DNA from: a candidate division WWE3 bacterium RIFOXYC1_FULL_40_10
Lineage (GTDB): Bacteria; Patescibacteriota; WWE3; UBA101185; UBA10185
Length of the DNA stretch: 64,000 bases
Direction of reading: 5' to 3'
Assembly (NCBI GenBank): GCA_001773215.1
Contig: MEWB01000001.1
Location: 322,473 to 386,472, forward strand
Shown: positions 5,507 through 57,700 of the stretch, piece by piece
Position numbering within the stretch: the stretch's first letter is position 1
How the letters are laid out: the number at the start of each line of letters is the position of its first letter
Notes under the pieces: model-generated
Told to the model about the DNA's origin: nothing
What the model saw: the letters and a program-made list of their open reading frames with translations, nothing else
Databases searched by the model: none
Position numbers and translations under genes: made by a program

Positions 5507-6367
5507 ATGCAAAACATAATTGACTGGATAAGAAATAATAAGCTTACAAGTGTGTTGTTCTTGATACTAGCTTTAGTACTCTTTCAAGGAACTACTAAAA
5601 ATAAATATGGCAATACAATTGTTTCAGACGCAGTAGTCTATCAGGAGGCTGCAGGTAAAAGAGGTTTGGAACAAGTTCCCGCTCAACAACGAAGAGTAAT
5701 CACCAGCTCCAGTTTTTCTTTGCTTGTTGAAAAGGTTGTAGACACAGCGGATGCAATAAAGCTTGAGGTTGAGAAATTAGGCGGGTACGTTATAAACACA
5801 AATATTTCACATCCGGAGTCAGGAGATTACGCTTATCTTAGTATTAGAGTACCCACAGATAAAGTACCATCTATCCAAAAGCTATTAAGAGACAAATCGG
5901 TAAAAGTAGTAAATGAAAATATTTCGGGGGATGATATTACGGATCAGTACATAGATATTCAGGAAAGACTGACAAAGTTGGAAAATACTAAGAGAAGACT
6001 TGAAGAAATTATGGTTCTAGCAAAGGATGTAGACGAAATAATGATGGTTCAGCAAAACATTTTCAATCTCCAGGACCAGATCGATAGTTATAAAGGCCAG
6101 TTAAAGTATATGAATGAGGCTACAGCTACCAGCTTGATCAGTATCGACTTATCTACTGACGAGTTAGCACTGCCCTATACTCCACTGGATGTTTGGAGAC
6201 CGGGTGTTGTATTTAAGTTGGCGGTGCGATCTATGTTGGGCACCTTGCAGCAGCTAGGTACTGCTGCGATCTGGCTAGCAGTTTACGCAGTACTACTAGT
6301 TCCAGTCCTAATAGCTGTTAAACTGGGATTAAACATAATTAGGAAACGTCAGTCAAAAGTTTTGTAA
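5507..6367 (+). CDS. membrane-anchored coiled-coil protein (N- and C-terminal TM helices, DUF4349-like architecture)
   Basis: N-terminal TM, central heptad-rich region (QERLTKLENTKRRLEEI...), C-terminal TM; architecture-only call. Confidence 0.4.
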   Translation: MQNIIDWIRNNKLTSVLFLILALVLFQGTTKNKYGNTIVSDAVVYQEAAGKRGLEQVPAQQRRVITSSSFSLLVEKVVDTADAIKLEVEKLGGYVINTNISHPESGDYAYLSIRVPTDKVPSIQKLLRDKSVKVVNENISGDDITDQYIDIQERLTKLENTKRRLEEIMVLAKDVDEIMMVQQNIFNLQDQIDSYKGQLKYMNEATATSLISIDLSTDELALPYTPLDVWRPGVVFKLAVRSMLGTLQQLGTAAIWLAVYAVLLVPVLIAVKLGLNIIRKRQSKVL

Positions 6368-22892: not shown

Positions 22893-23966
22893 ATGAGATC
22901 CACAGTTAAAGTATTTCTCGCCGTGGTTCTGGTGTTTTTACTAGCCAGCCCGGCGTTGGCCGAAGATTACATTACGGCGGCAGTTAATACGCTACAGAAT
23001 GCACGAGTATATGTATATCCCGGTACTGAAGGCACCGATTACTATACTTCTGCAAAGCTGGAAAGTTTGTTGCGGGATGGTGATGATCTGGTTCTTGTGA
23101 TGCTTCCGGCAGAGGCAGAAGCGGGAACAGATTTGCTCACCTTGGCTCGCAGTTTGTCCGAAGGTTTGGAAGACACTAAAATTATCGGACTTGCTGTTGG
23201 AAGAAAAGTTATTGGGTATGCTCCCAACCTACCTGTTGGAGTGGCCGCTGATCAAATGGAGCGCGCTAAGAGTGTTTCCAACGATTCTGTAACAGCTCTT
23301 GTTACTTTCTCGAGGAACATTCATCTGTGGCAAAAGGCGAATGTTAAGCAAACTCCCACACCACTTCCCACTATCACCCCTATTCCAAAGCCCACTTCTA
23401 CTCCCAGACCACCAATGTTACCAGAGGTAAAGAGAAAGCTATCTTGGTTAAGTGTAATATTCGTGATTTCACTAGTTGTTGTCGGGTTAGGTACACTAGT
23501 TGCCAGATCGCAACCGCTGTTTCTAATGAGTAAGCGGAAGCGAACTCTAAAACAAACCGAGCTTCAGATCAAAGGCATCCAAGAGGATGTGGGTTTGATT
23601 AGAGATTACAGAGTGAGAACTGAACTTTCTCATGCCTGTTTGGTTGCACTTGGCCTTGTGGAACTGCTTGAGATAGAAGGGAAGTCGCAAAGCTACACTG
23701 AACTGCAGCTACCTGTTTTGATAGGTAATATGGGAATTCAGGTTAAGTCCTTTCTAGGCCACGAGTCTAAAAGGCATCCAATTTCTCAGACGATGAATCA
23801 GAAATTAAGGGAGGTGTTGTTTAACTACGACGACTTGTTCACTAAGCTTCAGGAGGGTAATGAGAGTGCGACCGACTTACTCGCTTCGATAATCGAATCC
23901 AATAACGCAATGATTCAAGCCTTAGGCTATTTGCCCGAGGATCCTAATAAGAATGATCAGAGATAA
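22893..23966 (+). CDS. hypothetical bitopic protein: signal peptide, extracellular domain, Pro/Thr-rich linker, TM helix, cytoplasmic domain
   Basis: ORF track; PTPLPTITPIPKPTSTPRPP linker then a TM; GC higher than the genome background. Confidence 0.45.
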   Translation: MRSTVKVFLAVVLVFLLASPALAEDYITAAVNTLQNARVYVYPGTEGTDYYTSAKLESLLRDGDDLVLVMLPAEAEAGTDLLTLARSLSEGLEDTKIIGLAVGRKVIGYAPNLPVGVAADQMERAKSVSNDSVTALVTFSRNIHLWQKANVKQTPTPLPTITPIPKPTSTPRPPMLPEVKRKLSWLSVIFVISLVVVGLGTLVARSQPLFLMSKRKRTLKQTELQIKGIQEDVGLIRDYRVRTELSHACLVALGLVELLEIEGKSQSYTELQLPVLIGNMGIQVKSFLGHESKRHPISQTMNQKLREVLFNYDDLFTKLQEGNESATDLLASIIESNNAMIQALGYLPEDPNKNDQR

Positions 23967-24978
23967 GGAGATAGCTATGAAGAAACTGATTTGTCTGAGT
24001 TTGCTATTGGTTTTACTGGCCGGAATTCTGACGGCCTGCATATCGGCAGCATCTTCGACAGCAAGTTGTGCCTTTGTGGTCGGTAGTGGCTACAACGGCA
24101 ACGATTCCAAGTTGCACAAAGTAATCTTTCCCGGGCAGCAGGTCATTGTTGGTACGGACGAAGTTGTATCCTACTTTCCGTGTAACTCACGGAATTACAT
24201 CATCAACGATGGCAGCGTCAAGGATTTAAAAGGAAAGCCAGTGGGTGACCGAGCGCAATTGATTGAAGCTACGACTTCAACCGGTGTGCCGATTAAAATT
24301 GCAGCCAGGGCACTGTGGACCCTTAACCAGTCAGAGGATGCCATGGAGGCTTTCTACCAGGTATGTTTTAAATACAAGTGTGCCAGTGAGAAAGATCAAA
24401 GCGGCGACCAAAATTTCTCGACGGACGGTTGGAATGGCATGCTTGCCGAGAACATGGGTCCTGCAATGGAAACTGCTGCAAAGTACGCGGCATTCGAGGT
24501 TGATGATTCAATCTGGAATGTACAGGATCCTAAGCAGATAGAGGACCTCCAAGACAAGATGTCGGCGATTTTCGATGATGTAATGCGCGCGAATTTGGGG
24601 TACCCAGTGGATTTGTTCTGTGGATCAGGGAATTCGGCTTGGAGTGATCCTGAGCACCCTGGTGAAGGTGATTTTGTTTGTACACCTGTGCGTATTATTG
24701 TTGACTCAGTGCAGCGTGGTGATATTCAAAACGGGGAAAGTACGATGGGACTGATAGAATTGAACAAGCAGCGCCTCCAAAACGCTGTAGCTATCTATGG
24801 TTCCGTTGAAAATGCTGCATTCTGGCTTGCCTTGCAGGATTCGATCGAAAAGTGTAAAGGTTCTGGGGCGACCTGCGTTTTCAACATTGGGTTTCCGACA
24901 ACTTACCCGGTAGTTTTACCAGCGGGCGACAATGTAGCGTTACCTACTCCCGCTCCAACGGCTACAGCGCAACCTTAG
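23953..24978 (+). CDS. hypothetical lipoprotein
   Basis: Lipobox-like LLAGILTAC after a signal peptide; several Cys pairs. Confidence 0.45.
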   Translation: MIRDKEIAMKKLICLSLLLVLLAGILTACISAASSTASCAFVVGSGYNGNDSKLHKVIFPGQQVIVGTDEVVSYFPCNSRNYIINDGSVKDLKGKPVGDRAQLIEATTSTGVPIKIAARALWTLNQSEDAMEAFYQVCFKYKCASEKDQSGDQNFSTDGWNGMLAENMGPAMETAAKYAAFEVDDSIWNVQDPKQIEDLQDKMSAIFDDVMRANLGYPVDLFCGSGNSAWSDPEHPGEGDFVCTPVRIIVDSVQRGDIQNGESTMGLIELNKQRLQNAVAIYGSVENAAFWLALQDSIEKCKGSGATCVFNIGFPTTYPVVLPAGDNVALPTPAPTATAQP

Positions 24979-25004
24979 TAAATTGATCTTGTAAGTTTAT
25001 TCGT

Positions 25005-25040
25005 CCCCCGAGAGCAAATGTTTTCGGGGGATTTTCTTTT
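25005..25040 (+). terminator. Rho-independent terminator after the lipoprotein gene
   Basis: cccccgagagcaaatgttttcggggg followed by attttctttt. Confidence 0.5.
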
Positions 25041-25138
25041 GACTCAAGCTGTGATGTTACCTTGACAAACAGACCTATAACTATTAAAATTCTCAAGAAT
25101 CATCAGACTATAAGACCAATAGAACAAAGGAGTAAGGT

Positions 25139-26455
25139 ATGAATAAAGGTAAAATGCTTGACCCTAAGAATTTGTTTGCTGATATTGGAAACCCAGGGAA
25201 GCTTACAACTGCTCAGGATGGTGAGGAAGCTGCGGAGCAAGCAGGGGTAGCTGCCGAAATTAAGGCCATGAAGATTAAGAATGAGCTTGATAATCAGGAA
25301 GCCCAGATCGAACAAGCTACGGCTTTAATTGTGAGTCGTACACAAGCAATTCAAGAGAACCATGAGCTTTTTGATTTACACACTGTTATTTTCGGGTGGT
25401 TTCCCCCGGATGAAGTCAAAAAGGCAAACGCCTTGGTAGATGCTCGTAAAGCTACTGCATTGAATATCGATTCTGCAGCCAGCTATGGAGTTGTGCCTGA
25501 TAATGTAGTGGCACAATTCGTTAATTCTGCTGCTACCAGAGCTGCTGGACAGGCACGTTTGGAAGTTGCCAGGGTGCTTGATCAGGCTACTGGCGTTACT
25601 CGAAAAATTGCCGAAGACGAAAGCATCTCAGCTGACGAGGTCTCTAAGAAGGCGCAAAAGCTACTGGATAAATGGCACGACGCCCAGGTTCTAAATGCAC
25701 TGTTCAACCGCCTGTTTAAGCAGACACTGAACCGTGTGACCGATTACCAAAATCGGTTAGCGGGTGTTGGTAATGACTTAGCAAAGAAGCAAGTAACGCT
25801 GGAGACTATTTCTGCGTCCTTGTATGCTCGCCAGGAGTTGGTAAAGCGGTGTCTTTTTGACACCTGTGTTTCGGGTCTTGCTCTTGTGACAATCCTTGCT
25901 CAACAGCACGAAGTTCTTCATGACCTTGAGGTGAGCAAAAATAAGGACAGAAATTCTCCTCCTCAGGTATACGCCCAGAGGATTCAGGAGCAAGAAGCTT
26001 TGATCGAAATTACTACCAAGCGACTGGTGGACATTAAAGCGTTTGCAATTAAGCTAATCGGGTTGTACAGCGTGCTTGGTAACACACGGTTCAATGTTGC
26101 AATCATCAAGGCCGATGTTGTTTTCACCAGGACGAACCTGATGGCAACCCTAGGGTTACAGCTGGGTTTAGTTGTGGATATCATTTCCACTCTTCGAATT
26201 AGCAAAGCCGCTGGGGACATTCGCGAAGCCGAGGCCGAAGCAGCTGAAAAGGTGGGAGTGTCTACACAGGCTTTGGACGAGGCTGGCAATAAGGCTTTAA
26301 CAGACGTTCAGACTACAATCAGGAGTTTGAGGGCTACTGTTAATGCAGCGGTAGTAGGTATCAAGAATACGCACGCCAACCTCCAACGCGTCGCTGACAT
26401 GAATACTCAGGCAGAAAAGGAGTTTGCCGAGTTATTCGCAACGATGGCTGTGTAA
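25139..26455 (+). CDS. hypothetical all-alpha/coiled-coil protein (possible TelA/KlaA-like toxic-anion-resistance family; unverified)
   Basis: No signal peptide; long helical heptad regions; size and composition reminiscent of TelA-family proteins but I cannot confirm a motif. Confidence 0.45.
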   Translation: MNKGKMLDPKNLFADIGNPGKLTTAQDGEEAAEQAGVAAEIKAMKIKNELDNQEAQIEQATALIVSRTQAIQENHELFDLHTVIFGWFPPDEVKKANALVDARKATALNIDSAASYGVVPDNVVAQFVNSAATRAAGQARLEVARVLDQATGVTRKIAEDESISADEVSKKAQKLLDKWHDAQVLNALFNRLFKQTLNRVTDYQNRLAGVGNDLAKKQVTLETISASLYARQELVKRCLFDTCVSGLALVTILAQQHEVLHDLEVSKNKDRNSPPQVYAQRIQEQEALIEITTKRLVDIKAFAIKLIGLYSVLGNTRFNVAIIKADVVFTRTNLMATLGLQLGLVVDIISTLRISKAAGDIREAEAEAAEKVGVSTQALDEAGNKALTDVQTTIRSLRATVNAAVVGIKNTHANLQRVADMNTQAEKEFAELFATMAV

Positions 26456-26472
26456 TTTTTAAGGAAGAAGTT

Positions 26473-26507
26473 GCTCCCCGATAATAAAAATATCGGGGAG
26501 CTTTTAG
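26473..26507 (+). terminator. Rho-independent terminator
   Basis: gctccccgataataaaaatatcggggagc followed by ttttag. Confidence 0.55.
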
Positions 26508-26528
26508 TTCCTAATGGTATAATATAGT

Positions 26529-27101
26529 ATGCGGAAAAACTTCATTCCACTCATAATCATTTCTACTTTGCTCTTGGCGTTAGGATTGGCATATTCTCAG
26601 TATCAGTCTAGTCAAAGAAACAATGAGACTGCAAATTCCCTGAATACCCCTGATCTAGCGGGGGACAGAATTATAAACTTTAGCGGAAAAGGGTTAAAAA
26701 CAGTACCGGCAGACTTGCTAAATAATAATGCCTTACTTGAGCTTAATCTTAGTGCAAATGCAATTACTTCCTTGCCCTCGCAGATACAAGCTTGGGTAGA
26801 TTTGGAAGTATTTAATGTAGAAAAAAATCGATTGACGTCACTGCCGGCCGAAATAAGGTTCTTCACTAAATTAACTACTCTTGATGCAAGCGGAAATAGA
26901 CTCACAGGTTTACCCGCAGAAATTGGTCAACTAACCAATCTCATAGAGCTAGATCTGTCGGATAATGATATTACCGAGGTTCCAAACGAAATACTTACTC
27001 TTTTGGGTTTAGAGTCCCTGGATATTAGGGGAAATCCTATAAAGGCTGCTCACCTCAAGAGCTTACAGGATAGCCTACCTAATACAGACATCCAGTTCTA
27101 A
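26529..27101 (+). CDS. secreted leucine-rich repeat (LRR) protein
   Basis: Signal peptide; ~6 tandem 23-residue LxxLxLxxNxLTxLPxEI repeats. Confidence 0.75.
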   Translation: MRKNFIPLIIISTLLLALGLAYSQYQSSQRNNETANSLNTPDLAGDRIINFSGKGLKTVPADLLNNNALLELNLSANAITSLPSQIQAWVDLEVFNVEKNRLTSLPAEIRFFTKLTTLDASGNRLTGLPAEIGQLTNLIELDLSDNDITEVPNEILTLLGLESLDIRGNPIKAAHLKSLQDSLPNTDIQF

Positions 27102-33999: not shown

Positions 34000-35379
34000 A
34001 TGAACATTTGTGTTATTGGCACGGGATATGTGGGGCTAGTAGGCTCCGCTGTTTTTGCAGGGTGGGGAAATCAGGTTGTGGGAGTCGATGTCGACCAAGC
34101 CAAGCTGGATATGATTCAGGCTGGAGTGATGCCAATCTATGAGCCCGGTCTGCCTGAATTGGTTGCTCAAGGTATTAGGAGAGGTAACCTGCGTTTCACT
34201 AATTCCACTGCAGAAGGAATCAAGGATGCCGAGGTTATTTTTATCTGTGTGGGCACTCCACAAGGAGCCGCTGGTAATGCAGATCTATCCTCTGTGTTGC
34301 AGGTCGCGCGACAGATTGGCCAGAGCCTCGACCATTACGCGGTAGTAGTTACCAAGAGCACAGTTCCTGTGGGAACAAATCAACGGGTTAAGGAAATACT
34401 GCAAGAAACAACACAACAGGGTGTTCTATTTGACGTCGCCTCCTGCCCGGAATTTCTGGCCCAAGGCACATCTGTCTATGATATGGATCATCCGTCTCGT
34501 ACTGTGATCGGATCCGATTCACCCGAAGCCATTGAGCTAGTAGCGGAAGTTTTCAAGCATTTGCCAGCGGCAATCATTCGCTGCGGTTTTGCCGAGGCTG
34601 AATTGATAAAGTACGCCTCAAACGCACTACTTGCTACGAAAATTACTTTCGCAGATTCAATGGCCAGCCTTTGTGATCTTGTAGGTGCCGATGTTGTACT
34701 GGTAATGGATGCGGTAGGAAAGGATCCGCGTATCGGGGCGATGTTTTTGAGAGCCGGTCTTGGGTGGGGAGGTTCGTGTTTTCCCAAAGATGTCGAGGCG
34801 CTAGCCTATCTTGCAAGTCAACTTTCCTTGCCACTTCCACAGCTGGATGGCACGAGAAACACTAATCGACGGGTCCATAAGCGTTTCGTACACAAAATTA
34901 GTCTGTACTTCGATGGTAAGCTGGATGGAAAGACGTTCGCAGTTTTGGGACTGGCATTCAAAGCGGGAACCGATGATACACGTGAGTCGCCCGCAAAGAA
35001 AGTAATCATGCGTTTGCGTGGTGCCGGGGCTCGAGTCCGCGCTTATGACCCCAAGGCTACTGAGAAAGCAATCTTAGACCTTGGCACAACGTCTCTTGAG
35101 TACTGTGACAATCCATACGAAACTATGGCTGGGGCAGATGCGCTGGTAATCTTAACCGACTGGCCTGAATTTAAAGGATTGGACCTGTCACGAGTAAATT
35201 CCTTGCTCAAGAATCCCGTAATTTTCGATGGCCGTAACATGCTAGATCCAGAAACGGTTGAAAGGGAAGGCTTTATCTATTTTGCAATGGGCCGACCCAC
35301 AAATGGGCAACGCATTATTAATGGTAAAGATACTACCTACGTTGCGAAACTAACCAATGGAGCAGGATTGAATAAGTAG
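34000..35379 (+). CDS. ugd: UDP-glucose 6-dehydrogenase, full-length
   Basis: Rossmann VIGTGYVGLVGSAVFAGWG; catalytic GGSCFPKDVEAL; complete C-terminal UDP-binding domain; ~50% GC. Confidence 0.85.
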   Translation: MNICVIGTGYVGLVGSAVFAGWGNQVVGVDVDQAKLDMIQAGVMPIYEPGLPELVAQGIRRGNLRFTNSTAEGIKDAEVIFICVGTPQGAAGNADLSSVLQVARQIGQSLDHYAVVVTKSTVPVGTNQRVKEILQETTQQGVLFDVASCPEFLAQGTSVYDMDHPSRTVIGSDSPEAIELVAEVFKHLPAAIIRCGFAEAELIKYASNALLATKITFADSMASLCDLVGADVVLVMDAVGKDPRIGAMFLRAGLGWGGSCFPKDVEALAYLASQLSLPLPQLDGTRNTNRRVHKRFVHKISLYFDGKLDGKTFAVLGLAFKAGTDDTRESPAKKVIMRLRGAGARVRAYDPKATEKAILDLGTTSLEYCDNPYETMAGADALVILTDWPEFKGLDLSRVNSLLKNPVIFDGRNMLDPETVEREGFIYFAMGRPTNGQRIINGKDTTYVAKLTNGAGLNK

Positions 35380-35446
35380 CTTTAGGCAGCTTACAGATAT
35401 GAATAAGCCTCATGCATAAAAAACATGAGGCTATTATTTTTTCGTC

Positions 35447-36118
35447 TTATCCGGGGAATACTGCAAACCGTTCGTTCAAGGCCTTCCTCAAGTCACCATA
35501 AGTTTTGACTTTATGCGGGAAATACACACGAAGCCCGCATCTACGACATGAAAGAACATCTTGCTCTTTTGATGCTTGACGCCGATCTACCCACCCGTTA
35601 CAAAGGTCATGAACCCCCACGCAACAGGCGAGTTTAGCTTCGTCCGCGGTGTGTGTCACAAAGTATTCATAGCCGGCAAAAAGAGGTCGGGGCGGATATT
35701 CTCTGAGAAAATCTCCTTCCTCGGTAAGCTGAATGGGCATAAGAGGAACGCTTTTTAAGACCTGGGCGGTCACTTCCGCGATAAGTCTATCTCGATTTCT
35801 CAAAAAAGCTGTTGCAAGCCGAAATATATCGTTCAGCCATCCTGTTGCCATGTAATCTTCCCCATCCCTGCTAATTACTTTGTAAGGGAAATATCCGTTG
35901 ATACAGTACGTTTCTCCAGTCTTGCTTCCATCTTGATCTGTATAATGGCCGTAAAGCCGTCCAAGGGTGATAAGCTGAGGGTCAAATCCTGCAGCTTTAA
36001 CAATATCCTCCACAACTTTAAGCTCGGTATCTGACAAGTGCGTCTGATGTTCCCAACCTGTATCTTTATATTTCACTACCAAATCTGCAAAAGCGTTTAC
36101 AACAGAAGTAACTTCCAT
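35447..36118 (-). CDS. hypothetical protein with a C-terminal Cys cluster (CCVGVHDLC...SCRRCG); start re-set to MEVTSVV, which has an AAGGAG SD
   Basis: The track start at 36187 is a TTG that runs into tRNA-Gly; the internal ATG at 36116-36118 has a consensus RBS. Confidence 0.45.
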   Translation of the reverse strand: MEVTSVVNAFADLVVKYKDTGWEHQTHLSDTELKVVEDIVKAAGFDPQLITLGRLYGHYTDQDGSKTGETYCINGYFPYKVISRDGEDYMATGWLNDIFRLATAFLRNRDRLIAEVTAQVLKSVPLMPIQLTEEGDFLREYPPRPLFAGYEYFVTHTADEAKLACCVGVHDLCNGWVDRRQASKEQDVLSCRRCGLRVYFPHKVKTYGDLRKALNERFAVFPG

Positions 36119-39717: not shown

Positions 39718-39929
39718 GGTGATGGTGAGGACGGTGGGATTCGGTCACCGGTTCTCGCCTGCTGGCTCGCCCGTCGACCCCGCCTCCTTCGCCTTCGCCC
39801 AGTCCGGCATTCTCACCCACCTCTTCTGCCAGTTGGTGTATCTGTTTGCCTGGTGGGATAACATTACGTTCCCCGAAGTGAATTATACAACAAAGTACCC
39901 TTTAACCCTTACCTACGAGGATATAGACA

Positions 39930-40247
39930 GTGCAATGGTCAGAATTGGAAGTAGAGTCTATGTGTAGGCTGTATAATAACTTTATGCAGGGTATACAGAC
40001 AAAAGACGCACAAGAGTTTGACCCCAATGTGTTGGAGGAAATTGTAGTAGTAGATTATTCGGAACCGGATGTAATTAAGTCCATATACTCACCAACGCTA
40101 TTTCCGCACCTTAAATTGACTACCAATGCCGTTAGCAGAGACATTGAAGTTGTTGTTGTATCAACGGAAAACGAAGATAAGCAATTACTCCACAAACTTC
40201 TGACGGAAACAAGAACGGCTCGTAATTATGTTTTGAATAAGTGCTGA
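39930..40247 (+). CDS. hypothetical protein (element cargo)
   Basis: ORF track only. Confidence 0.35.
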   Translation: MQWSELEVESMCRLYNNFMQGIQTKDAQEFDPNVLEEIVVVDYSEPDVIKSIYSPTLFPHLKLTTNAVSRDIEVVVVSTENEDKQLLHKLLTETRTARNYVLNKC

Positions 40248-40249
40248 AA

Positions 40250-40381
40250 ATCCACGATTTTCCATTATTCTCCATTAAAGTTACCTGTATTCGCGACCTA
40301 CTTAAAACCCAGTATTTCCACCATATTCCACCATTTTGTTTTCCACCAAAGTCCACCAAAGTTGCCACCATTAGCCATCAT
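40250..40381. repeat. iteron-like array of about nine TCCAYYA heptamers (TCCACCA x4 core) at ~9-15 bp spacing in a convergent intergenic region of the element
   Basis: tccacga, tccatta, tccatta, tccacca, tccacca, tccacca, tccacca, gccacca, gccatca read directly. Confidence 0.55.
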
Positions 40382-40423
40382 TTTGTATTTAAGTATTTTT
40401 TTGCAAGTATTAGTCTTTTGAAG

Positions 40424-40810
40424 TTAAATATGTTCTTGTTCTTTGACGGTGTTTTCGGTTTCAACATTACCTGTGTTTAAGGTTGTTCGTGGCTCAATAA
40501 GCACGATTTGGACTTCCTCCGGTGCTTCCGGTTTATGTTCAACTAATTTTGGTATGATTACGAATTCCCCTTCATTTACCTCCACCGTTCTATCTCTAAA
40601 ATGTATCAGTAACTTTCCAGTTATAACCCAAAACAGTTCTTCCTCTTTTTCGTGGTGGTGCCAATGAAACTCTCCTTTTAGTTTTACAACTTGAACTTTG
40701 TCGTCATTTAGTTCACCCACTATCTTTGGATTCCAGTGTTCGGTAAATTTGTTAAGTTTTTCTTTTATGTTTACAACTTTTACGTTTTTGGAGTTACTTA
40801 TAGGTTCCAT
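40424..40810 (-). CDS. cupin domain protein
   Basis: Cupin motifs GEFHWHHHEKEEELFWVITG ... GEFVIIPKLVEHKP. Confidence 0.7.
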   Translation of the reverse strand: MEPISNSKNVKVVNIKEKLNKFTEHWNPKIVGELNDDKVQVVKLKGEFHWHHHEKEEELFWVITGKLLIHFRDRTVEVNEGEFVIIPKLVEHKPEAPEEVQIVLIEPRTTLNTGNVETENTVKEQEHI

Positions 40811-40835
40811 AGTAAGGTTATTATAGAATATCTAT

Positions 40836-41228
40836 ATGTCTTTTGAAATAACTGGAATACATCATATTGAATTTACAGTTACCGACTTGGAACAATCTAA
40901 AAGATTTTATTCCAAATTTCCGGGATTTAAGGTAGTTGCGGAGTATCCAAATTTCGTAATGTTTCAAGCAAACGAGTTTTATTTAGGGTTGACCGACCAT
41001 AAAGGTTGTGTTACAAACGACAAATTTAGTGAATTTAACGTGGGTTTAGACCATTTAGCATTTGGGGTTAGTTCTTTGGAAGATTTACGTGAGGTAGCAA
41101 GTTTTTTAGATTCTCAAAAAATCCCTCATTCGGAGATAAATGTACTTTCAAATGGCACCCACATTTTTACTTTTCGGGACCCGGACAATATACAGTTGGA
41201 ATTTGCTTATAAGCCCGGAATATTTTAA
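40836..41228 (+). CDS. VOC/glyoxalase/bleomycin-resistance family protein
   Basis: ITGIHHIEFTVTDLEQSKRFYSKFPGFKVV, a typical VOC beta-alpha-beta-beta-beta module. Confidence 0.7.
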   Translation: MSFEITGIHHIEFTVTDLEQSKRFYSKFPGFKVVAEYPNFVMFQANEFYLGLTDHKGCVTNDKFSEFNVGLDHLAFGVSSLEDLREVASFLDSQKIPHSEINVLSNGTHIFTFRDPDNIQLEFAYKPGIF

Positions 41229-41278
41229 GACTTACCACCTACTATTGATTGTACAAAAAATGTTAGGTTTTATCAGGT

Positions 41279-41650
41279 TCAGATGCTGCTTTTTAGTAAC
41301 TCGTGAAGCCATTTGAATAGTCTGCTAGGTAGTTGGTCAAGACTATCTACAATGAGTTTAACTTTGTCAGTCTCACCCATTTTTTCCAACTGTTCTGCCT
41401 CGCGTTGAAGCACCTCTTTTAATACATTAAAGGCTCCGTGGATAAGGTTTGCCCGTGTTTCGTGCTGTTTTTCTTTGTGGTAAAGCCAAACTGCTGTCAA
41501 TATAAGCAATACGCCCAGTCCGTTGTTAACAAAGTATTGCCAGTTGTCCGGTGCAGTCTTTAATGAGGTTGACGCAATAACTATGTTACCTCCAACTGCA
41601 CAGGCAAGTTCTAACACATTACTAATTTTTATGTTCATGGGTATGTTCAT
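41279..41650 (-). CDS. small membrane protein, hypothetical
   Basis: ORF track; two TM helices. Confidence 0.4.
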   Translation of the reverse strand: MNIPMNIKISNVLELACAVGGNIVIASTSLKTAPDNWQYFVNNGLGVLLILTAVWLYHKEKQHETRANLIHGAFNVLKEVLQREAEQLEKMGETDKVKLIVDSLDQLPSRLFKWLHELLKSSI

Positions 41651-41712
41651 CTACTGCATTATACCGCAATAAGTTACCGCAGGTAGGGTATTACTTACAA
41701 AAAGGGGAAAGG

Positions 41713-42090
41713 TTATTTATCGCCAAAAAACTGTAAGATGTTCCCTTCCGGGTCTGCAATAGTCATACACCAAAAACCGCCGGGAGGACCTTCAAAAGGC
41801 TCTGCAATAATATTTACGTCCTTGTCTTTAAGTTCGTTGTAAATACCACTGACACTATCAACATTGAGATTTATCATGATTCTGTAAGGGTCCTTGCTTT
41901 TCCCGTGTACTTTATCGTGTTTGCCTACATAAAAGTATGAAGGCTCAAATTTGAAATCCACACCAGTATCATCTGGTAAAGTAAGCCTTTGTGAAACAGT
42001 AAAACCAAGAACGTCTTCGTACCACTTTGCCAGTTTTTCGTAATCATCTGACCAAATACAAACAGAAATAATATTGTCTTTGAGTTTCAT
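41713..42090 (-). CDS. VOC/glyoxalase family protein
   Basis: ISVCIWSDDYEKLAKWYEDVLGFTV; 125 aa. Confidence 0.7.
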   Translation of the reverse strand: MKLKDNIISVCIWSDDYEKLAKWYEDVLGFTVSQRLTLPDDTGVDFKFEPSYFYVGKHDKVHGKSKDPYRIMINLNVDSVSGIYNELKDKDVNIIAEPFEGPPGGFWCMTIADPEGNILQFFGDK

Positions 42091-42252
42091 ATAGTAATAT
42101 TATACGAGAATGTAAGTTTCTTGCATAGACTTAACAATCAGGTCAGTGTATTCTAACCCGACTACAGTGTGGAAGGAAAGGTTGTTTATCTTGCGGAGCG
42201 TACCGGACTTTTTTGTTTCAATACAACTTACGATATATTATAATCATCTTAT

Positions 42253-42462
42253 ATGGGCATAAAATTTGGCGAAATAGATGCAACTCAAATTCTTGATAAC
42301 GAGTTTCGTGTTAAATTCACAGCGTTTCTTGTTGAATGGCTATTTGATAACAATCCCCAATTAAAAAAACCCACACCCGAGGAAATTAAAGCATTACAAG
42401 AAGCCGTCATTAAGGAACTCCAAAAAAAGTATCCAAATTCTGGGATTAAACTTCAACAATGA
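42253..42462 (+). CDS. small hypothetical protein upstream of the recombinase (possible directionality/accessory factor)
   Basis: ORF track; 4-nt overlap with the next ORF. Confidence 0.3.
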   Translation: MGIKFGEIDATQILDNEFRVKFTAFLVEWLFDNNPQLKKPTPEEIKALQEAVIKELQKKYPNSGIKLQQ

Positions 42463-42827
42463 AACCAAATGAATCCAATGAACAACAAGAAAAAGTGAAA
42501 GGTATACTTGCTTCTGCAAAACGTGCTGAATTGTTAGATAGAGGGGTTACTGTTGAACACCGCACGGATTGGGAAAAGATTGGGCAACGGATTGGAATTA
42601 TTGTTTCGGTCATTACTATTTTAAGTTTTATATTTTCCTGTATGGTTTTTCTGTATACAATCCAAAAGGATATGCGTGATTATTACGACCAGCAACTCAA
42701 CCGTGTTATAGATTTAACAAACCGACAAACAAAAATGGAAACTCAAATAGAAACGCTACAAAAACAAATAACCAACGATTGTATAATTACACAGCCGAGT
42801 CAACCAAACCAGCCTCAAAGCAAATGA
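42459..42827 (+). CDS. small TM + coiled-coil protein
   Basis: ORF track; one TM helix then a heptad region. Confidence 0.35.
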   Translation: MKPNESNEQQEKVKGILASAKRAELLDRGVTVEHRTDWEKIGQRIGIIVSVITILSFIFSCMVFLYTIQKDMRDYYDQQLNRVIDLTNRQTKMETQIETLQKQITNDCIITQPSQPNQPQSK

Positions 42828-42908
42828 CACCGCATAAGCCGTAACCGAGTTTAAGTCTACTGTATCTAAACATCCCCGCCACTTCGTAGTAACATACTCT
42901 TATATCGT

Positions 42909-44717
42909 ATGCCGACATTAAACTCACAAGACAAACCAGTTAAAGTAGCCTATTACCTACGAGTAAGCACGGATGACCAGATTGACCGTTATGGTATTGC
43001 ACTTCAAAAAAGGTCATTGGATGCCATTGTAGCCTCTCGTGGGACTCTTGAAGATGGAAAGACGAACGCATTACAACTCGCCGGAGAACAATACATCTAC
43101 AAAGATGAAGGTGTCAGTGGAACCATACCACTGGAAGACAGACCGGCTTTTGCGAGACTTCAAGAAGATGTTGTAAATGCACCGGACGGAGAAAAACCGT
43201 TTGATATTGTTGCCGTTTACAAAATTGACCGTTTTGCCCGAAAATTAAAGATTTTACTTGACGTCATTGAGTTCTTTGAGAAATACGGGATTAAGTTCAT
43301 ATCCGTACATGAGAGTATTGACACTTCAACTCCATTTGGGAGGGCGATTTTAGGGATTGTTGGTGTGTTGTCAGAACTTGAAATGGAAACGATAGCAATG
43401 CGAACCAGAGCCGGCAAAGAGGAAGCGATTGCAAAAGGTGTTTTCATGGGGAAAGTACCTCCATACGGCTATATCAAAGATACTGAACGAAGGCTTAAAG
43501 TGCTACCAAAAGAGGCAGAAATTGTGAACGTGATATTTGAAAAGTTTGTGGTTGAAAGGTTGCCGTTACAGGCTATATGCCGGTATTTAGAAGATAACAA
43601 GATTGAATCACCCGGAGTAACAGCAGTAACCAATCAAAAGCGTAAAGGCGGTATATCAAAGAAAAGCAACCCGTTCTTTTGGGCGACACCAATGATAAAA
43701 AACATACTTGGAGATGAAATCTATCTTGGAAAATACTACTACAACAAGACAAAGGGTAGAAAACATTTACCGAAAGCGGAGTGGAAATTGTCTGTATACA
43801 GATACGAGGCGATAGTTGATACCATCACCTTTGCGAAAACTCAAACACTGCTTGAAAACAGAAAGATATTCAATGTGGTGAGACATGACGACAAGCATAT
43901 TTACCTTTTAAGCGGTTTACTGAAATGTGCCTGTTGTTACAACCCGGAAAGAGACAAAAACGAAGGTATGCAAACATTGCATGGTGAACCAAAAGAAATC
44001 CACAAAGGTAGCCAGCACTATACTTACTACTACAAATGCAGAAGGAAAACTACTGCAAAAACCTCAATCAGATGCGGTTCGCTTCCCTTACCGGCTGAAC
44101 AAATTGAGAAATATGTTATTGAGAGACTCCGGGAACTTCTCACTGACCCAAAAGCAGTGTTTAATTATCAACTAAAATTAAGGTCAACAGAACAGGAACT
44201 TAAAAGGCTAAATACGGATTATGATATGATTCGCCGATTAAAAAATGGTCTACCACAAAGAAAATCAAACCTAAAAGAACAGCAAGAATACAGCTATATT
44301 ACCTCAAAAGAACTTACCGAGAAACTCAATGCACTTGATTCACAAGAAAAAGAGTATGACGGGAAACTGGCAGAGTGGGAAGCAAAAATATCAGAAACTA
44401 AACTAGACGAAGGTTACATCAAGAGTTTTGAAATCTTTGAAAAACAATACAAGAAGGCTTTGGAAGACATAAATAGCAACAGAGAAACATTACAACAATT
44501 ACTTCGGATGATAGTTGACAAGATAGTTGTTCACTCCCGACCAGTTAAGGAAGGAGACATTATAGCCGGAAGAAAAACCGGAGACCAACAGGTGCCGTAT
44601 AAAATAGAAATGAAACTACATTTGCCACAAGAGTATCTCAAACTTTTAGAAGCAAAAGCCAACGAAGCATGGGTCAACAGACCGGAGGAGTTCGGGGATA
44701 AAAATGTTAACTGGTGA
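42909..44717 (+). CDS. large serine recombinase (resolvase N-domain + recombinase domain + zinc ribbon + coiled coil)
   Basis: Catalytic-serine motif YYLRVSTDDQ; resolvase-domain motif DRFAR; Cys cluster CACC...C...C; ~600 aa typical of LSR integrases. Confidence 0.85.
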   Translation: MPTLNSQDKPVKVAYYLRVSTDDQIDRYGIALQKRSLDAIVASRGTLEDGKTNALQLAGEQYIYKDEGVSGTIPLEDRPAFARLQEDVVNAPDGEKPFDIVAVYKIDRFARKLKILLDVIEFFEKYGIKFISVHESIDTSTPFGRAILGIVGVLSELEMETIAMRTRAGKEEAIAKGVFMGKVPPYGYIKDTERRLKVLPKEAEIVNVIFEKFVVERLPLQAICRYLEDNKIESPGVTAVTNQKRKGGISKKSNPFFWATPMIKNILGDEIYLGKYYYNKTKGRKHLPKAEWKLSVYRYEAIVDTITFAKTQTLLENRKIFNVVRHDDKHIYLLSGLLKCACCYNPERDKNEGMQTLHGEPKEIHKGSQHYTYYYKCRRKTTAKTSIRCGSLPLPAEQIEKYVIERLRELLTDPKAVFNYQLKLRSTEQELKRLNTDYDMIRRLKNGLPQRKSNLKEQQEYSYITSKELTEKLNALDSQEKEYDGKLAEWEAKISETKLDEGYIKSFEIFEKQYKKALEDINSNRETLQQLLRMIVDKIVVHSRPVKEGDIIAGRKTGDQQVPYKIEMKLHLPQEYLKLLEAKANEAWVNRPEEFGDKNVNW

Positions 44718-44786
44718 GGACGGTGGGATTCGAACCCACGACCAAGGGATTAAGAGTCCCCTGCTCTACCACTGAGCTACGTCCCC
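44712..44786 (-). tRNA. tRNA-Lys (anticodon CTT)
   Basis: GGGGACG acceptor, GCTCAGTGGTAGAGC D-arm, anticodon loop CTCTTAA, TTCGAAT T-loop, CCA encoded. Confidence 0.8.
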
Positions 44787-51704: not shown

Positions 51705-54700
51705 ATGGACAATAAAAACACGTTTTACACGCTTGGAAGAGACCTGGCTATAAAGAAGAAATTCCCGCCAAAAAGAATTTTCCCGCTTATTAGAAAACAT
51801 AGCGATTTAGACTACAAAACCTTATATTCCCGTTTCGGAAATTTATATGCGTACTTAGTTTCGGAATACGAAAAAAACCCTGAAATAGTGCCCCTGGCCG
51901 CCTCGTGGATACTTGATAACTACTACCTAGTCAGCCAACAGTATGTCTTATTTGAGAAAACCTTTAAGACTAAGTTATTAAAAAAACTACCGTTATCGGA
52001 ATACGATCGGGTATATTACCAGATACACTATATAGCCAAAAAATACCTGGAGGCTACAAATTGTAGTTTTTCCGAAGAAACACTAATCCCATTTTTGAGG
52101 GGGTATCAGAAAATATACCCGTTATCTAGCCTCGAAATATGGATTTTGCCAACTGTGATCAAATTCGAGCAGACCCTAACCCTACTGAATAAAGGCTACG
52201 AGATCAGGGATAAAATTCAGAACGCTAAGTTTGCTGATCAGGTGGTTCAAATAATAGCTAACGACTTAAGCAGAAAGAAAAACCCGGTAAAAAAGATGAA
52301 TAGGATATTAAGAAGCCCGAACATGAACCCACATGTTCTTCTGGCCGTTCTTGAGGACGTAAGGGAATTAGATTATAAGGTAGAAGAAACACTGGCTCTT
52401 GTGGAATCCAAAATTCACGAGGAAGATCTAAACCTCGAGGAATATACCCGTGCAAGTGTGTTAAGAGATATTAATCTAAAACAGACCCTAAGTAACACAG
52501 TTTTGTCAATCAAAAATTTCTTCTATATAAACTGGAACAAGTTCTATAACAAAGTAAGCATTGTTGAAAGTACGCTCAAACTGGATCCGGCAAATATCTA
52601 TGCGACCATGGACGATATAAGCAGAGACAGATACCGCCATATTATTAGCGATCTTAGCAATAATAGCAATTATAGCGAATCAGAAGTTGCCAGAAAGGTT
52701 GTGGAAACTGCCGCAGCCTCGAATATTGATATCCAACAACACGTGGGGTATCACTTGATAGATCATGGTTTTTTTAACTTTGCTGAAAAAATAGGCTATA
52801 AACCAACCTTTAAAGTATTTGTTATTAACTGGCTAAAAAAGTACCCTAACTTGGGTTACATGGGAGGCATCTTCTTAATAACAGTAGCTTTGTCAGCGCT
52901 TTCCTTTTTTACAGCAATAATAGTTTCCCATAACTTGCTTTTCACACTCCTGTTCTCGGTTGGTCAGCTGTTTATAGCTTCTAACCTGGCAACTCTGATT
53001 ATTAACAAGTTATTAGCCTACATTCTTCCTACAGCGCTTCCTCCCAAGATAGAGTTGAAGGACTTTATTCCCGAAAACTGCAAAACCATGATAGTTATTC
53101 CAAGTATGCTTTCGGGAATGGAAAAAGTAGATAAATTAGTATACGAATTGGAGAAAAGATTTCTGTGTAACAAATACAAGAATCTCTTTTATGCTCTTCT
53201 ATGTGACTATAAGGACTCCGACGTTGAAGAATCCGAGGGTGATTATCAACTTTTAGCCTATGCAAGGGAAAAAATAAGGGAGCTAAATGAAAAACATATG
53301 GATGAAGGCTTTAACGTGTTCTATTTTTTCCATAGGAAACGCCAATTTAGCCAAAAGGAAGGCGTTTGGATGGCATGGGAGAGAAAACGCGGAAAATTAC
53401 TTCAGCTGGTTGAATGGCTCACAAAAGAAGGTAACTTTTTCTCGGTTATAGATGGGGATTTAGATAAATTAACTGATATCAAGTATGTAATTACACTAGA
53501 CGAAGACACTATGCTGCCAGCCGATTCTGCTTTAAAGCTCATAGGTGCGATGGAGCACCCTCTTAATCGTCCAGTTGTAAACCCCGATACTAGAATAGTG
53601 ACAAGAGGTTATGGATTTATACAGCCCAGAGTAATACTGATGCCCGAAGCTGAGGGACTTTCGAACTTCACGCACATTTTTGTAACAGAAAGTGGGTATG
53701 ATTCCTATTCTAATGCCACCTCGGATATTTATCAGGATTTGTTTAATCGGTCTATCTTTTGGGGCAAAGGAATATTTGACGTACAGGCTATAAAGGAAAG
53801 CCTTGGAGATAGGTTCCCTGAAAACCGAATTCTTAGCCATGATTTGATTGAAAGCTGTTTTTCCAAAGCGGCCTACCTTTCGGATACAAGCATAATCGAA
53901 GACTACCCTCCAACCTTTAATAGCTATCTAATGCGGGATAGCAGGTGGATACGTGGAGATTGGCAATTAATACCCTGGCTGTTCCCGAATATTATGTCAA
54001 AAGGGAATACATTCGAGAAAAACCCTCTGGATTTCCTCTCGAAATGGTTAATATTCACAAATTTGAGAAGAAGCATGATTTTACCGCTTTTTCTTTTCTC
54101 ATATATGCTAAGCTGGCTTGTAATAAAATCCGACATATTAACAGCCTATCTATCGGTTCTATTCTTTTCCCAAATATTTATTGAGCTAGATGATATTTCA
54201 AGGCCAATTAGCCATAAAATGCCTCTCACTGAAAAACTTATCTTAATAGTTTCCTCAGTTAAAAAGAAAATTACTCTTGTAGGCGCATATTTTGTTGGGC
54301 TTAGTCTGCTAGCCCTAAATAAAACTCAGGCGATACTAATATCGCTATATAGATTGTTAACAAACAAACACCTGCTGGAGTGGACTACATTCGACGAAGC
54401 TCAGCAACTTGTTGATAAAAATGCCAGTCTGCGGAAACAGCTATTGTCTCCATTTACAATCGCAAACTTACTAATAATTTTATATCTGGTGCAATCGGGT
54501 AAGGCTACCGTTATCAACACGGCGATAATTGTTCTATGGTTACTCTCCCCTGCTATATACACGCATATTAGCCGTCCTTTGAAGACAAAAAAACTTCGGG
54601 AGTACATTACGGATAAGGAAAGGATGCTCTCGTACGCCAAAAAAATATGGCTATTTTTTGAGAGTTATACCAACGAGGAAAGTAATCACCTTCCTCCGGA

Positions 54701-57700
54701 TAACCTGCAGCTCATACCTACTACAAAAATCGCATTTAGAACATCTCCAACTAATATTGGTTTTTATCTATTGTCACTGCTATCAGCCTTTGACCTGGGC
54801 ATTGTCACGGCGGATAACTTTGTAGATAGACTTAAAAAGACACTTTCTACGATTGTGAAGCTAAAAAAGTATGAGGGCCAGCTATATAATTGGTATGACG
54901 TAAAAACGCTTGAACCTTTAAACACCTACATATCTACGGCCGATGCCGGAAATTATGTGGCTACGTTAATGCTTTTGGAATCAGCATGCGATGATTTAGT
55001 CAAAAACTCAACGAGTTTGAGTAAGGAAAACATCGAAGAGCTAATCTACGTGCGTAAAGCACTCAAAAGTTTGTATTTGGCCTCAGACTTTACCTTTCTA
55101 TACAACAAGAATATGGAAGTATTTTCGATAGGGTTTAATTCGGATACATGCGAAAAAGACTCCAGCCATTACGATTTTCTAGCATCTGAAGCTAGAATAA
55201 CAAGCTATGTTGCGATAGCTCTTGATCAGGTTGAAACGAAGCATTGGTTTAATATCTCAAGGCCCTATCAAGTAAGAAAAGGAAAGTTCTATCTTATGTC
55301 TTGGGGCGGAACAATGTTCGAATATCTCCTACCCACGTTACTTTTTAACGAAAAAGATAATACACTGCTGGGCCAAACTGCTAAAGAAATTTGTTCACTT
55401 CAAATAAAGTATGGACATGACAATGGTATACCGTGGGGGATTTCTGAATCTAATTTCGATTCGTTCGACCTTGATGCAAATTATCAATATAAAATGATGG
55501 GAGTTCCTAAGCTAGCTCTAAAAAGATACGATACTGAAGATTTAGTCATATCACCTTACTCGTCGTTCCTGGCGCTAATGGTAAATCCTGTAGCTGCTGA
55601 AAAAAACCTCAAACTTCTTGAAAAGCATAAAGCTCTGGGCTTGTACGGTTTCTTTGAGGCTATCCATTTCACCAGATCAAAGAAAGACGCTTTGGAAGAG
55701 CAGCTAGTTCAAATATACACGGCTCATCATCAAGGAATGTGTATGGTAGCAATTAACAACGTCCTAAATGATCGCCTCATGGTGAGAAGGATGCATAGTA
55801 ATAACTACGTCAAATCGTGTGAAATACTTTTGGACGAGCGAATCCCTGAGGTGGCGAACGTAGTGGACCCTAATCAGTACGGCTATGATAAAAGGGTCTC
55901 CTCAGTTAAGATTTACGAAAAGGATCGCGTTAGATTTTCGAGTACCCCAAACACATTGTTTCCTATCGCTCAGATTTTCGGAAACGGAAGATACTCTACT
56001 ATGATTACCAACTCGGGGGCAGGATACAGTAAATTTAAAGACATCTATTTGAATAGGTTTAGTGAAGATCTCTCTCTAGATAATTCCGGCAATCATATTT
56101 ACATTAAAGATGTAGACCTAGACTATTTTTGGTCGGCTACCTATCAACCTACCTTAAAACAAGCTGAAAAATATGAGGCTAAGTTCGATGATGAGCATGC
56201 TGAATTTCATAGGCTAGACAGGAACACAAACACCTCTCTAACAGTACTGGTCCCTCCTGAAAAGAATTTCGAACTAAGAATTCTAACACTTAAAAACTCA
56301 TCAGTATTTCCTAAGGAATACGAAATCACTACGTATAACGAAGTAATGCTGGACGACTTTAAGGCCGGGGTTACTCATCCTGCTTTTAATAAACTGTTTA
56401 TAGAAACAAGTTGCATCGACGAAATACTAATTGCAAAACGACGGAAGAGGAATCAAAAGGACCCGGATAGATATGCGTTCCATTTTGGATACTCCGAAAC
56501 AGAAGACTTCACACTGGATTCTTACGAAACATGCCGATCAAATTTTGTAGGACGAACTAAAACCCCACGAAATCCGGTTATGATGCACAAAGTATTAACC
56601 AACACCCTTGGAGCGGTATTAGATCCGATATTTAGCTTGAGATATAAAGTTAAGCTACTTCCCGGCGAAACGAAAAAGATATATTTCGTATATGGATATG
56701 CTACCAATCCGCATGAGATTAAAGCTACAAAAGACCTTATTCAAGCTAACGGGTCTATAAGTGAATTAAGTTATTTGAACGGGCACTATGTAGAAGCCCG
56801 CAGAACGCATTTGGGAATTACCGTTGGACAGGAGATAACCTTCCAAAGAGTTGCATCCCGACTAATCTACCCGGACTTTCGTCTTCAGGAACAGTCGGAT
56901 TTGCAGCACTACAAAGGAAAAAACGTGTTGTTTAGATTCGGTATATCGGGGGATAACAAAATATTAGTTCTAAAGGTTAATAGCACAAACATAGAGATGC
57001 TCAGGAACATGGTGTTGTTGCATAAATACCTTAGAATACTGCGCTTCCAGATAGACTTAGTGTTTCTAATTGACGAAACGATAAGCTATGAGGAAACGTT
57101 AGAAAGAGATGTAGCTTCCTTAGTTGGTCCAGAAGAAAAGAATTCTGGAATCTTCATCCTGAATGTTGTAAACATGTCTATTGAGGAAAAACATACTTTG
57201 CTGGCTTTAGCCAAAGCTGTATTTGATACTTCTCTTGGATCTCTCGATGAGCAAATTAGCATCGCCACAAGGTACTCGGAACCCGGAGTTGTTAAAGTTC
57301 CACCAACTCGCCGCTCTAATGTGATAGAAAGCATCGGCACAATTAAGGAGGAACTGGATGACTTGGAGTTCTACAATGGCTTGGGCGGTTTTTCTGATAA
57401 CGGCAGAAAGTATTCAATAAACTATAACCCTAATTACCCTACTCCTTTGCCCTGGACAAATGTTATCTCCAACGAAACATTTGGAACTGTTGTGTCAGAA
57501 GCGGGATTGGGGTACACCTGGAACATCAATAGCCAGATAAACAAAATCACTCCATGGTCGAATGATTATGTTTGCGATCCACAAGGCGAGGCGATTTATC
57601 TCAAGGATACACTAACCGGTGCCGTTTTTGGTGCAACTCCTCTGCCGTGCAATGACTCGGAATTCAGTGTAGTGCATGCCCCGGGTTATACGGATTATAT

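Follow-up and report, generated by a model that had tools for sequence, protein, structure and literature searches.

The 64,000-nucleotide stretch analysed here (hereafter the window; contig MEWB01000001.1 of candidate division WWE3 bacterium RIFOXYC1_FULL_40_10) contains an integrative element of 4.9 kb, at positions 39851-44716, which was placed by a large serine recombinase (LSR) at the 3' end of a tRNA-Lys gene. Inside the element, an open reading frame (ORF) ending at 40247 and a cupin gene on the minus strand (40424-40810) converge on an intergenic gap, and this gap holds an array of nine heptamers on the plus strand, between 40251 and 40380, that can be read directly in the sequence. 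A first-pass annotation had located the heptamers and the convergent gap correctly, and had proposed that the array is an origin or partition-like site or an accessory recombination site. It had also excluded a promoter, in agreement with our failure to find a consensus or conserved promoter in the gap. The upstream gene, here called ORF87, and the repeat groups are listed below; L-numbers denote related loci that we compared with the window element.

39984..40247, plus strand: ORF87, 87 aa, the constant upstream neighbour of the array
40251..40277, plus strand: group 1, a decamer triplet, TCCACGAttt TCCATTAttc TCCATTAaag (heptamers TCCACGA at 40251-40257, TCCATTA at 40261-40267 and 40271-40277)
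40317..40333, plus strand: pair 1, TCCACCAtatTCCACCA (TCCACCA at 40317-40323 and 40327-40333)
40342..40358, plus strand: pair 2, TCCACCAaagTCCACCA (TCCACCA at 40342-40348 and 40352-40358); degenerate in L007 (TCCGTTAaagTCCTAAA)
40364..40380, plus strand: pair 3, GCCACCAttaGCCATCA (GCCACCA at 40364-40370, GCCATCA at 40374-40380); the G at position 1 of both units is retained in L007, L017 and L037

The start-to-start steps between successive heptamers are 10, 10, 46, 10, 15, 10, 12 and 10 bp. Tandem Repeats Finder (TRF) and a repeat search both resolve the array into one triplet and three pairs, with a period of exactly 10 bp inside every group. The 9-15 bp phasing first described passes over the 46-bp gap.

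The clustering of the heptamers is not a product of chance. Four exact copies of TCCACCA lie within a span of 42 bp in the array, out of 11 on both strands of the whole window, where 6.0 are expected. The maximum number of exact copies per 135 bp was four in the window and at most two in 100 shuffled sequences; with one mismatch allowed it was six, against at most five in the shuffles, a value reached once in 100. Besides the array, the window has one further place with at least four copies of any 6-mer within 140 bp. The sense strand of 40248-40384 is rich in C (30%) and poor in G (8%), with TC dinucleotides at 10-nt intervals. All ten arrays compared have a pyrimidine-rich sense strand, and C/(C+G) is at least 0.65 in seven of them, the arrays of L093 and L094 not being C-rich. 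The DNA 3' of the array is AT-rich and is not conserved among relatives.

The element belongs to a family of LSR elements of ∼3-10 kb or more found in candidate-phyla genomes (window 42909-44786; L007-L012, L015). In relatives, insertion is at the very 3' end of tRNA-Leu, Lys, Glu or Val genes, and the stop codon of the LSR gene overlaps the end of the tRNA or abuts on it. We found nothing in the literature on these elements, nor on DnaA boxes or Rho in Patescibacteria. A BLASTN comparison of the element with L007 gave only two aligned stretches, 39848-40384 and 42880-44739: the left block stops at the last heptamer, and homology returns ∼30 nt before the LSR start. Only the LSR (79% identical to that of the window in L007, 95% in L015 and 43% in L095) and ORF87 are conserved across elements. 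The intervening cargo, which in the window consists of a cupin gene, two glyoxalase-family genes and three small ORFs (40424..42827, assigned with Pfam), is not common to L007, L015 or L037, and the ORFs at 42253 and 42459 are not conserved in relatives. L007 instead carries a radical-SAM/SPASM enzyme gene and a gene whose product weakly resembles transglutaminases (E = 0.011, below the Pfam cutoff); L037 has an ABC transporter as well as an HD-domain gene between the LSR tail and ORF87; L040 has two methyltransferase-like genes and a ParB-like protein, identified from translations only, with no domain scan; and L015 has almost no cargo. As judged from these alignments, the backbone is conserved and the cargo is fully exchangeable.

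The array belongs to the backbone. It lies directly 3' of an ORF87-family gene in relatives with entirely different cargo. The first-pass annotation had named lack of conservation in homologous elements as a refuting condition, and the array passes this test; the general idea of a cis-acting site of the element is upheld. A motif-free scan for clustered repeats of the type heptamer-NNN-same heptamer, covering ∼90 loci and ∼1.2 Mb of related DNA, detected hardly any arrays other than those lying immediately 3' of ORF87-family genes. At least three decamer-pair groups occur within 450 nt of the ORF87 stop codon in 12 of ∼26 distinct elements, compared with 2.9% of random 450-nt windows drawn from the same loci. 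In L037, the HD-domain gene separates the left attachment site (attL) from ORF87, yet the array has remained with ORF87; L093 has a gene inserted between the ORF and the array. The array is thus a real and conserved backbone component of very small mobile elements at tRNA genes of the candidate phyla and, on the alignments examined, it is the only conserved non-coding part of the family apart from the attachment site.

Between elements, the arrays differ in length and detail. L017 has nearly the same array as the window, L007 has groups of two, two, two (degenerate) and three heptamers, and L037 has a triplet and three pairs with rearranged spacers. The array of L095 comprises four to five pairs ∼32-35 bp apart, and in L040 14 heptamers, in six groups, span 270 bp; L145, L039, L055 and L094 conform to the same plan. 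The exact 10-bp period within groups, the T-rich linker, the leading TC, the orientation relative to ORF87 and the filling of a convergent gap, beyond which the next gene is always on the opposite strand, are constant. The core vocabulary is limited (TCCACCA, TCAACCA, TCCACGA, TCCGCCA, TCCCCCA, TCCATTA and GCCACCA), with TCATACA/TCAGACA or TCGCAGA/TCCGATA in other lineages. Units within one group are usually identical and the cores differ between groups and between lineages. Changes in unit number between the relatives examined are whole 10-bp steps; group 1, for example, has two units in L007 and L015 and three in L017 and L037, a difference of exactly 10 bp. This suggests that the groups were born by tandem duplication and then retained.

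The array is conserved above the neutral level. Between the window and L007, identity at fourfold-degenerate sites is 41% in the LSR gene (n = 163) and 58% in ORF87 (n = 26). Pair 1, taken with its flank, matches at 24 of 24 bases and pair 3 at 24 of 25, while pair 2 has decayed. This patchiness speaks more for differential constraint than for recombination blocks. The group order (CACCA, NACCA, CGCCA, ∼34-35 bp apart) is common to L040 and L095, whose ORF87-family proteins are distant from one another and from that of the window. The window and L017 arrays are ∼94% alike (an estimate from the alignment), with 58% identity at third codon positions of ORF87.

These comparisons bear on the possibility that the array has no function and consists of slippage-prone tandem 10-bp duplications, or of footprints left by cargo turnover at the border between backbone and cargo. 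Each group is indeed a literal tandem duplication with its own core, and unit number changes in whole 10-bp steps; the arrays do lie at the cargo boundary, about half of the related elements have none, and the closely related L039 and L040 proteins are accompanied by different arrays. However, the near-perfect retention of pairs 1 and 3 against 41-58% at neutral sites, the group order kept between L040 and L095, and the recurrence of a limited set of cores (CACCA, AACCA, CACGA, CGCCA) across lineages make this explanation very unlikely. The array would rather be a selected cis-acting DNA module, for which a protein-binding role in cis is, from the sequence comparisons, the best reading.

The obvious candidate for a partner is the gene that accompanies the array. 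The start of ORF87 is most likely 39984 and not 39930 as first annotated, because the 5' extension, which begins with GTG and gives 105 aa, is out of frame in L007. The start is probably leaderless, 6 nt 3' of a TGTATAAT box at 39970-39977. The protein family is small, with 12 representatives at E < 1e-3 among 1.8 billion cluster representatives and 4, 32 and 30 matches in word-indexed searches of 5.8 billion proteins. It has a conserved core of ∼60 residues that ends in the motif V.V..SS.E.ED..LLH.L; within the family alignment, the window protein is 17% identical to that of L040 and 29% to that of L095. No sequence match to Pfam, PHROG or PDB entries and no structural match was obtained. A helix-turn-helix (HTH) or Rep-like fold had been suggested as a check for the ORFs at 39930, 42253 and 42459, and none of the three gave a sequence-profile match in Pfam or PHROGs; fold models cover the family of the first. 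In these AlphaFold2 models the C-terminus forms one long helix, not a helix-turn-helix, and a ribbon-helix-helix (RHH) assignment of the C-terminus was rejected on this ground. To judge from the models, the family therefore has neither of the folds, HTH or RHH, looked for as signs of a centromere-binding protein.

Iteron or origin and partition functions, both proposed for the array at first, do not agree with its build or its gene context. Iteron origins have near-identical repeats of ∼17-22 bp, whereas the units here are 10 bp long (heptamer plus 3 bp), paired and of differing core, and no Rep initiator gene adjoins them in the elements scanned. Rep, primase, helicase and the partition NTPases ParA, ParM and TubZ are absent from the window, L007, L037 and L095 in Pfam and PHROG scans and from the called genes of L015, so that a partition centromere would have no partner NTPase in these elements. 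A cluster of DnaA boxes was likewise rejected: the best match to TTATCCACA is 7/9 (TTTTCCACC, by eye), the variants TCAACCA, TCCGCCA and TCCCCCA alter box positions 6-7, and the window has no other such cluster.

Among the closest known systems are plasmid iterons with a downstream control array (P1 incA, F incC) and centromere-like arrays recognised by small adaptor proteins. In P1 incA and F incC, too, same-strand direct repeats lie just 3' of a small mobile-element gene and vary in number between relatives, but those iterons are 17-22 bp long, nearly identical and adjacent to Rep, in contrast to the 10-bp pairs with pair-specific cores found here; the array-bearing elements scanned gave no Rep. 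The R1 parC/ParR, pSM19035 omega heptad and R388 stbDR/StbA systems likewise combine repeats of 7-11 bp at about one helical turn with an adjoining small-protein gene. Here, however, there is no partner NTPase, no RHH or HTH was found in ORF87, and helical phasing exists only inside the pairs, the groups being 12-80 bp apart. On the reading preferred below, the array is not an origin of replication. A wider version of the idea, an iteron- or centromere-like site served by host or helper proteins, with the excised circle replicating or hitch-hiking on the chromosome, draws on the helically phased direct repeats, the quiet convergent gap, the adjoining AT-rich DNA, the place of the array in the conserved backbone, and the existence of small motor-less repeat-binding systems such as R388 StbA. 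The missing replication and partition genes, the short units with variable cores, the weak DnaA-box matches, whose variable positions fall on normally conserved box positions, and the elements that have no array all speak against this version, which we consider unlikely.

The third initial proposal was a site for a recombination directionality factor or an accessory site of the recombinase. The attachment sites and the recombinase gene are listed below.

39851-39855, within 39851..39967, plus strand: attL crossover core TGGTG
39857-39865 and 39870-39877: attP right half-site, GATAACATT and TCCCCGAA
39851..39967 (within), plus strand: 43-codon LSR tail, whose codon phase fits LSR codons 44712-44717
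42909..44717, plus strand: LSR, 602 aa in the integrated state; Pfam Resolvase, Recombinase and Zn_ribbon_recom
44691-44698 and 44703-44711: attP left half-site in the LSR 3' end, TTCGGGGA and AATGTTAAC
44712-44716: attR core TGGTG; the TGA stop of the LSR gene overlaps the CCA end of the tRNA
44712..44786, minus strand: tRNA-Lys(ctt), the integration target (ARAGORN and Rfam)

When the two ends are joined, an attP results whose half-sites are long and inverted (...TTCGGGGA-TAAAA-AATGTTAAC-TGGTG-GGATAACATT-ACGT-TCCCCGAA...), for which the half-site motif is TTCGGGGA-N5-AATGTTAWC. The distance from the crossover to the array, as estimated from the sequences, is variable, ∼400 bp in the window, L007 and L015, ∼500 bp in L040 and L095 and ∼1100 bp in L037. 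The heptamers are unlike the attP half-site motifs, for which reason arm or accessory sites of the LSR were rejected, and have only TGGTGG in common with the attP centre. Moreover, the known directionality factors of large serine recombinases act through protein-protein contact. The Xis sites X1-X2 of lambda and X1-X4 of L5 and the Cox boxes of P2 resemble the array in being phased direct repeats of an integrative element that are associated with a small element-encoded protein; those arrays, however, lie at most ∼150 bp from the crossover and serve tyrosine integrases, whereas the array described here stands at a variable ∼400-1100 bp from the crossover of a large serine recombinase. The directionality-factor or accessory-site proposal is not supported by these observations. 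A Chi-like hotspot was also considered, TGGTGG, the reverse complement of the array heptamer, being the core of E. coli Chi; TCCACCA occurs outside the array at chance frequency (seven copies in 64 kb against ∼6 expected) and the cores vary, and this identity was rejected.

The left end of the element is at 39851 and not at 39723, where an exact 21-bp copy of the tRNA-Lys 3' end (TGGTGAGGACGGTGGGATTCG) is found. We rejected this copy as attL because homology with four relatives starts at 39851; homology with L007, L015, L017, L019 and L037 begins at TGGTGGGATAACATT (39851). The copy at 39723 is not part of the present element; behind it comes a GC-rich stretch of 107 bp that is missing in relatives, and the segment 39723-39850 looks like the scar or remnant of an earlier integration at the same tRNA gene. 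The sequences of L005, L017 and L038 begin at bases corresponding to ∼39860-39868 of the window, so that three independent assemblies break within ∼20 bp of attL, which is what a population mixture of integrated, empty and excised forms would produce. An exact 26-mer of the circular junction was absent from viral contigs and from all related loci examined.

The attP site lies inside the LSR gene. In the excised circle, with the order LSR, attP, LSR tail, ORF87 and array, the LSR frame runs 43 codons past the crossover, to 645 aa (...NVNW|WDNITFPEVNYTTKYPLTLTYEDIDSAMVRIGSRVYV*), whereas in the integrated state it is closed by the TGA formed with the tRNA CCA end; in L007, the integrated frame reads on for ∼30 codons through the antisense sequence of the tRNA. 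Within the tail, relatives differ almost only by synonymous changes. The same layout is found in the window (39851-39967 and 44709-44717), L007 (47-175), L010 (4103-4276), L015 (4892-5038), L037 (2-235) and L095 (86-325). Integration therefore swaps the last 43 residues of the LSR, and the swap could act as a sensor of directionality or integration state. This offers a testable route by which a serine integrase might distinguish the integrated from the free form.

Elsewhere in the window, the GC content rises to 0.43-0.50 at 23000-27000 and 34000-36000, as against ∼0.39 in the remainder; the second of these regions includes a UDP-glucose dehydrogenase gene (34000-35379). A single ORF of 2675 aa with glycoamylase and GH94 domains in the gene calls occupies 51705-59732, a very large gene for a genome of ∼0.9 Mb.

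The C-rich sense strand raises the question whether the array acts in RNA, as a Rho-utilisation (rut) site at which the transcript of the LSR and ORF87 genes would end, or as a platform in the 3'-UTR to which an RNA-binding protein attaches. The strand has much C and little G, arrays with other cores are skewed likewise, the RNA is unstructured, and the sequence from ORF87 to the cupin gene gave no intrinsic terminator; in addition, TC every 10 nt would suit Rho, whose RNA footprint per subunit is close to 10 nt. However, between the gene and the array of L039, L040 and L145 the sequence shows a terminator-like hairpin with a T-tract behind it, so that the array is probably outside that mRNA. 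The arrays are confined to ORF87 neighbourhoods in the ∼1.2 Mb of related DNA and are not general 3'-end signals, those of L093 and L094 lack the C-richness, and specific cores are conserved, unlike in known rut sites. No rho gene turned up in the sequences compared, a result that carries no weight either way. An RNA-level role is quite unlikely, and the hairpin between gene and array, together with the rigid 10-bp geometry, favours a role of duplex DNA.

Several other identities were tried and rejected. A structured RNA is not supported, with no Rfam match and folds of either strand no better than those of shuffled sequences (z = -0.09 and +0.72). No consensus promoter or terminator sites were present in the ORF87-cupin gap. 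A coding repeat is incompatible with the 10-bp period, which breaks the reading frame, and ORFs across the array are frame-inconsistent between relatives. With regard to intrinsic curvature and phased T-tracts, the array ranks 654th of 6387 segments (wedge model, with parameters entered by hand), and its period-10 TT signal is not among the top windows.

The elements encode only the recombinase, ORF87 and cargo, and must therefore borrow a transfer route. A helper-dependent transfer signal, such as a pac- or cos-like packaging site, an oriT mimic or a DNA-uptake signal, would fit the array in so far as the cis sites of such routes are typically repeat arrays in quiet intergenic DNA. In favour, too, is the gene at the same left-end position in a sister family (L010 4279-4899), whose product of 206 aa weakly matches a terminase small subunit (phrog_4102, E = 2e-4). 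In that family the ORF87 homologue (ORF132) lies directly 5' of the LSR gene and overlaps its start, and an excisionase-like gene (HTH_17/MerR; L010 7381-7569) is divergent from the ORF132-LSR operon. Relaxase and terminase genes were absent from the array-bearing elements scanned. The chance frequency of TCCACCA outside the array argues against a genome-wide uptake sequence. Similar arrays occur in 13 viral loci, but permuted control heptamers gave 2, 16 and 7 loci, and the element has no homology to those viruses. A transfer signal of this kind is, in our opinion, decidedly improbable, and the viral arrays were dismissed as a motif shared by phage and host, the count reflecting a look-elsewhere effect. 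In a phage lineage, the viral contigs L026 (3866-3945), L031 (∼1830-1940) and L036 (∼230-330) carry seven to eight TTCCACCA decamers directly 5' of the first gene in a block extending rightward as far as a primase-helicase gene. Their contig numbers point to the metagenome series from which the window's contig also comes. The permuted controls show that viral matches of the TTCCACCA type are expected by chance.

Taken as DNA, the array closely resembles the tandem-dimer operators of winged-helix regulators. CtsR sites (heptad-N3-heptad) and the boxes of OmpR, PhoB and TorR have the identical geometry: two copies of one heptamer separated by a 3-bp spacer, with several dimer sites of this kind. 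They lie in promoters and follow one consensus, whereas the array has several core types and occupies a convergent gap in which neither a consensus nor a conserved promoter was found. The array is a variant of a known theme, the protein-binding repeat arrays of mobile elements, with an unusual build.

We propose that the array consists of tandem-dimer binding sites for one factor, an element-encoded protein; ORF87, the only conserved candidate besides the LSR, is the likeliest. We hold this reading with low confidence, at a probability of about 40%. The working unit would be a tandem pair, sometimes a triplet, of 10-bp units, each made of a heptamer near TCCNCCA and a T-rich 3-bp linker, so that both sites of a pair would face the same side of the helix. 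The groups, which number four to seven and lie at irregular distances, would each be bound by a head-to-tail dimer of one DNA-binding factor, probably the co-inherited ORF87-family protein. The resulting nucleoprotein block, in the transcriptionally quiet gap where the backbone operon meets the convergent cargo, would probably insulate or control the recombinase/ORF87 module or hold the excised circle. The state of L015 is in keeping with this proposal: it appears to be a decaying copy of a near-identical element in another genome, its LSR gene (6010-7818) has a premature TAG at codon 516, and most of the array has been lost, leaving a remnant at 5298-5440.

Several observations weigh against the proposal. 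The pyrimidine-rich sense strand would equally suit a role at the level of RNA or single-stranded DNA, and DNA binding by ORF87 is something that we infer. The likeness of the window and L017 arrays may be due in part to mosaic recombination and not to constraint. About half of the ORF87-family elements have no array, and none was found in the elements of the sister family. Cores and proteins do not change together, since the L039 and L040 proteins are ∼80% alike (by eye) and their cores differ, while the distant L040 and L095 proteins go with cores that are alike. Finally, within one array (L055, L094) the cores vary widely, which is loose for one sequence-specific protein.

A bolder reading, which we regard as rather unlikely, is that ORF87 and the array form a hitherto undescribed two-part cis/trans module for the persistence or spread of minimal serine-recombinase elements in candidate-phyla bacteria. 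Such a module may, for example, tether the excised circle or provide a handle for a helper phage or a DNA-uptake machinery, and binding might read the tandem duplication itself and not one consensus.

Patescibacteria have tiny genomes, and little is known of how they exchange genes. The family described here offers a minimal case, made of a recombinase, a small protein, an array and a swappable cargo slot that has held cupin, glyoxalase, radical-SAM enzyme, ABC transporter and methyltransferase genes. Identifying the ligand of the array would show how such minimal elements are controlled or transmitted, and would give a function to a protein family without detectable relatives.
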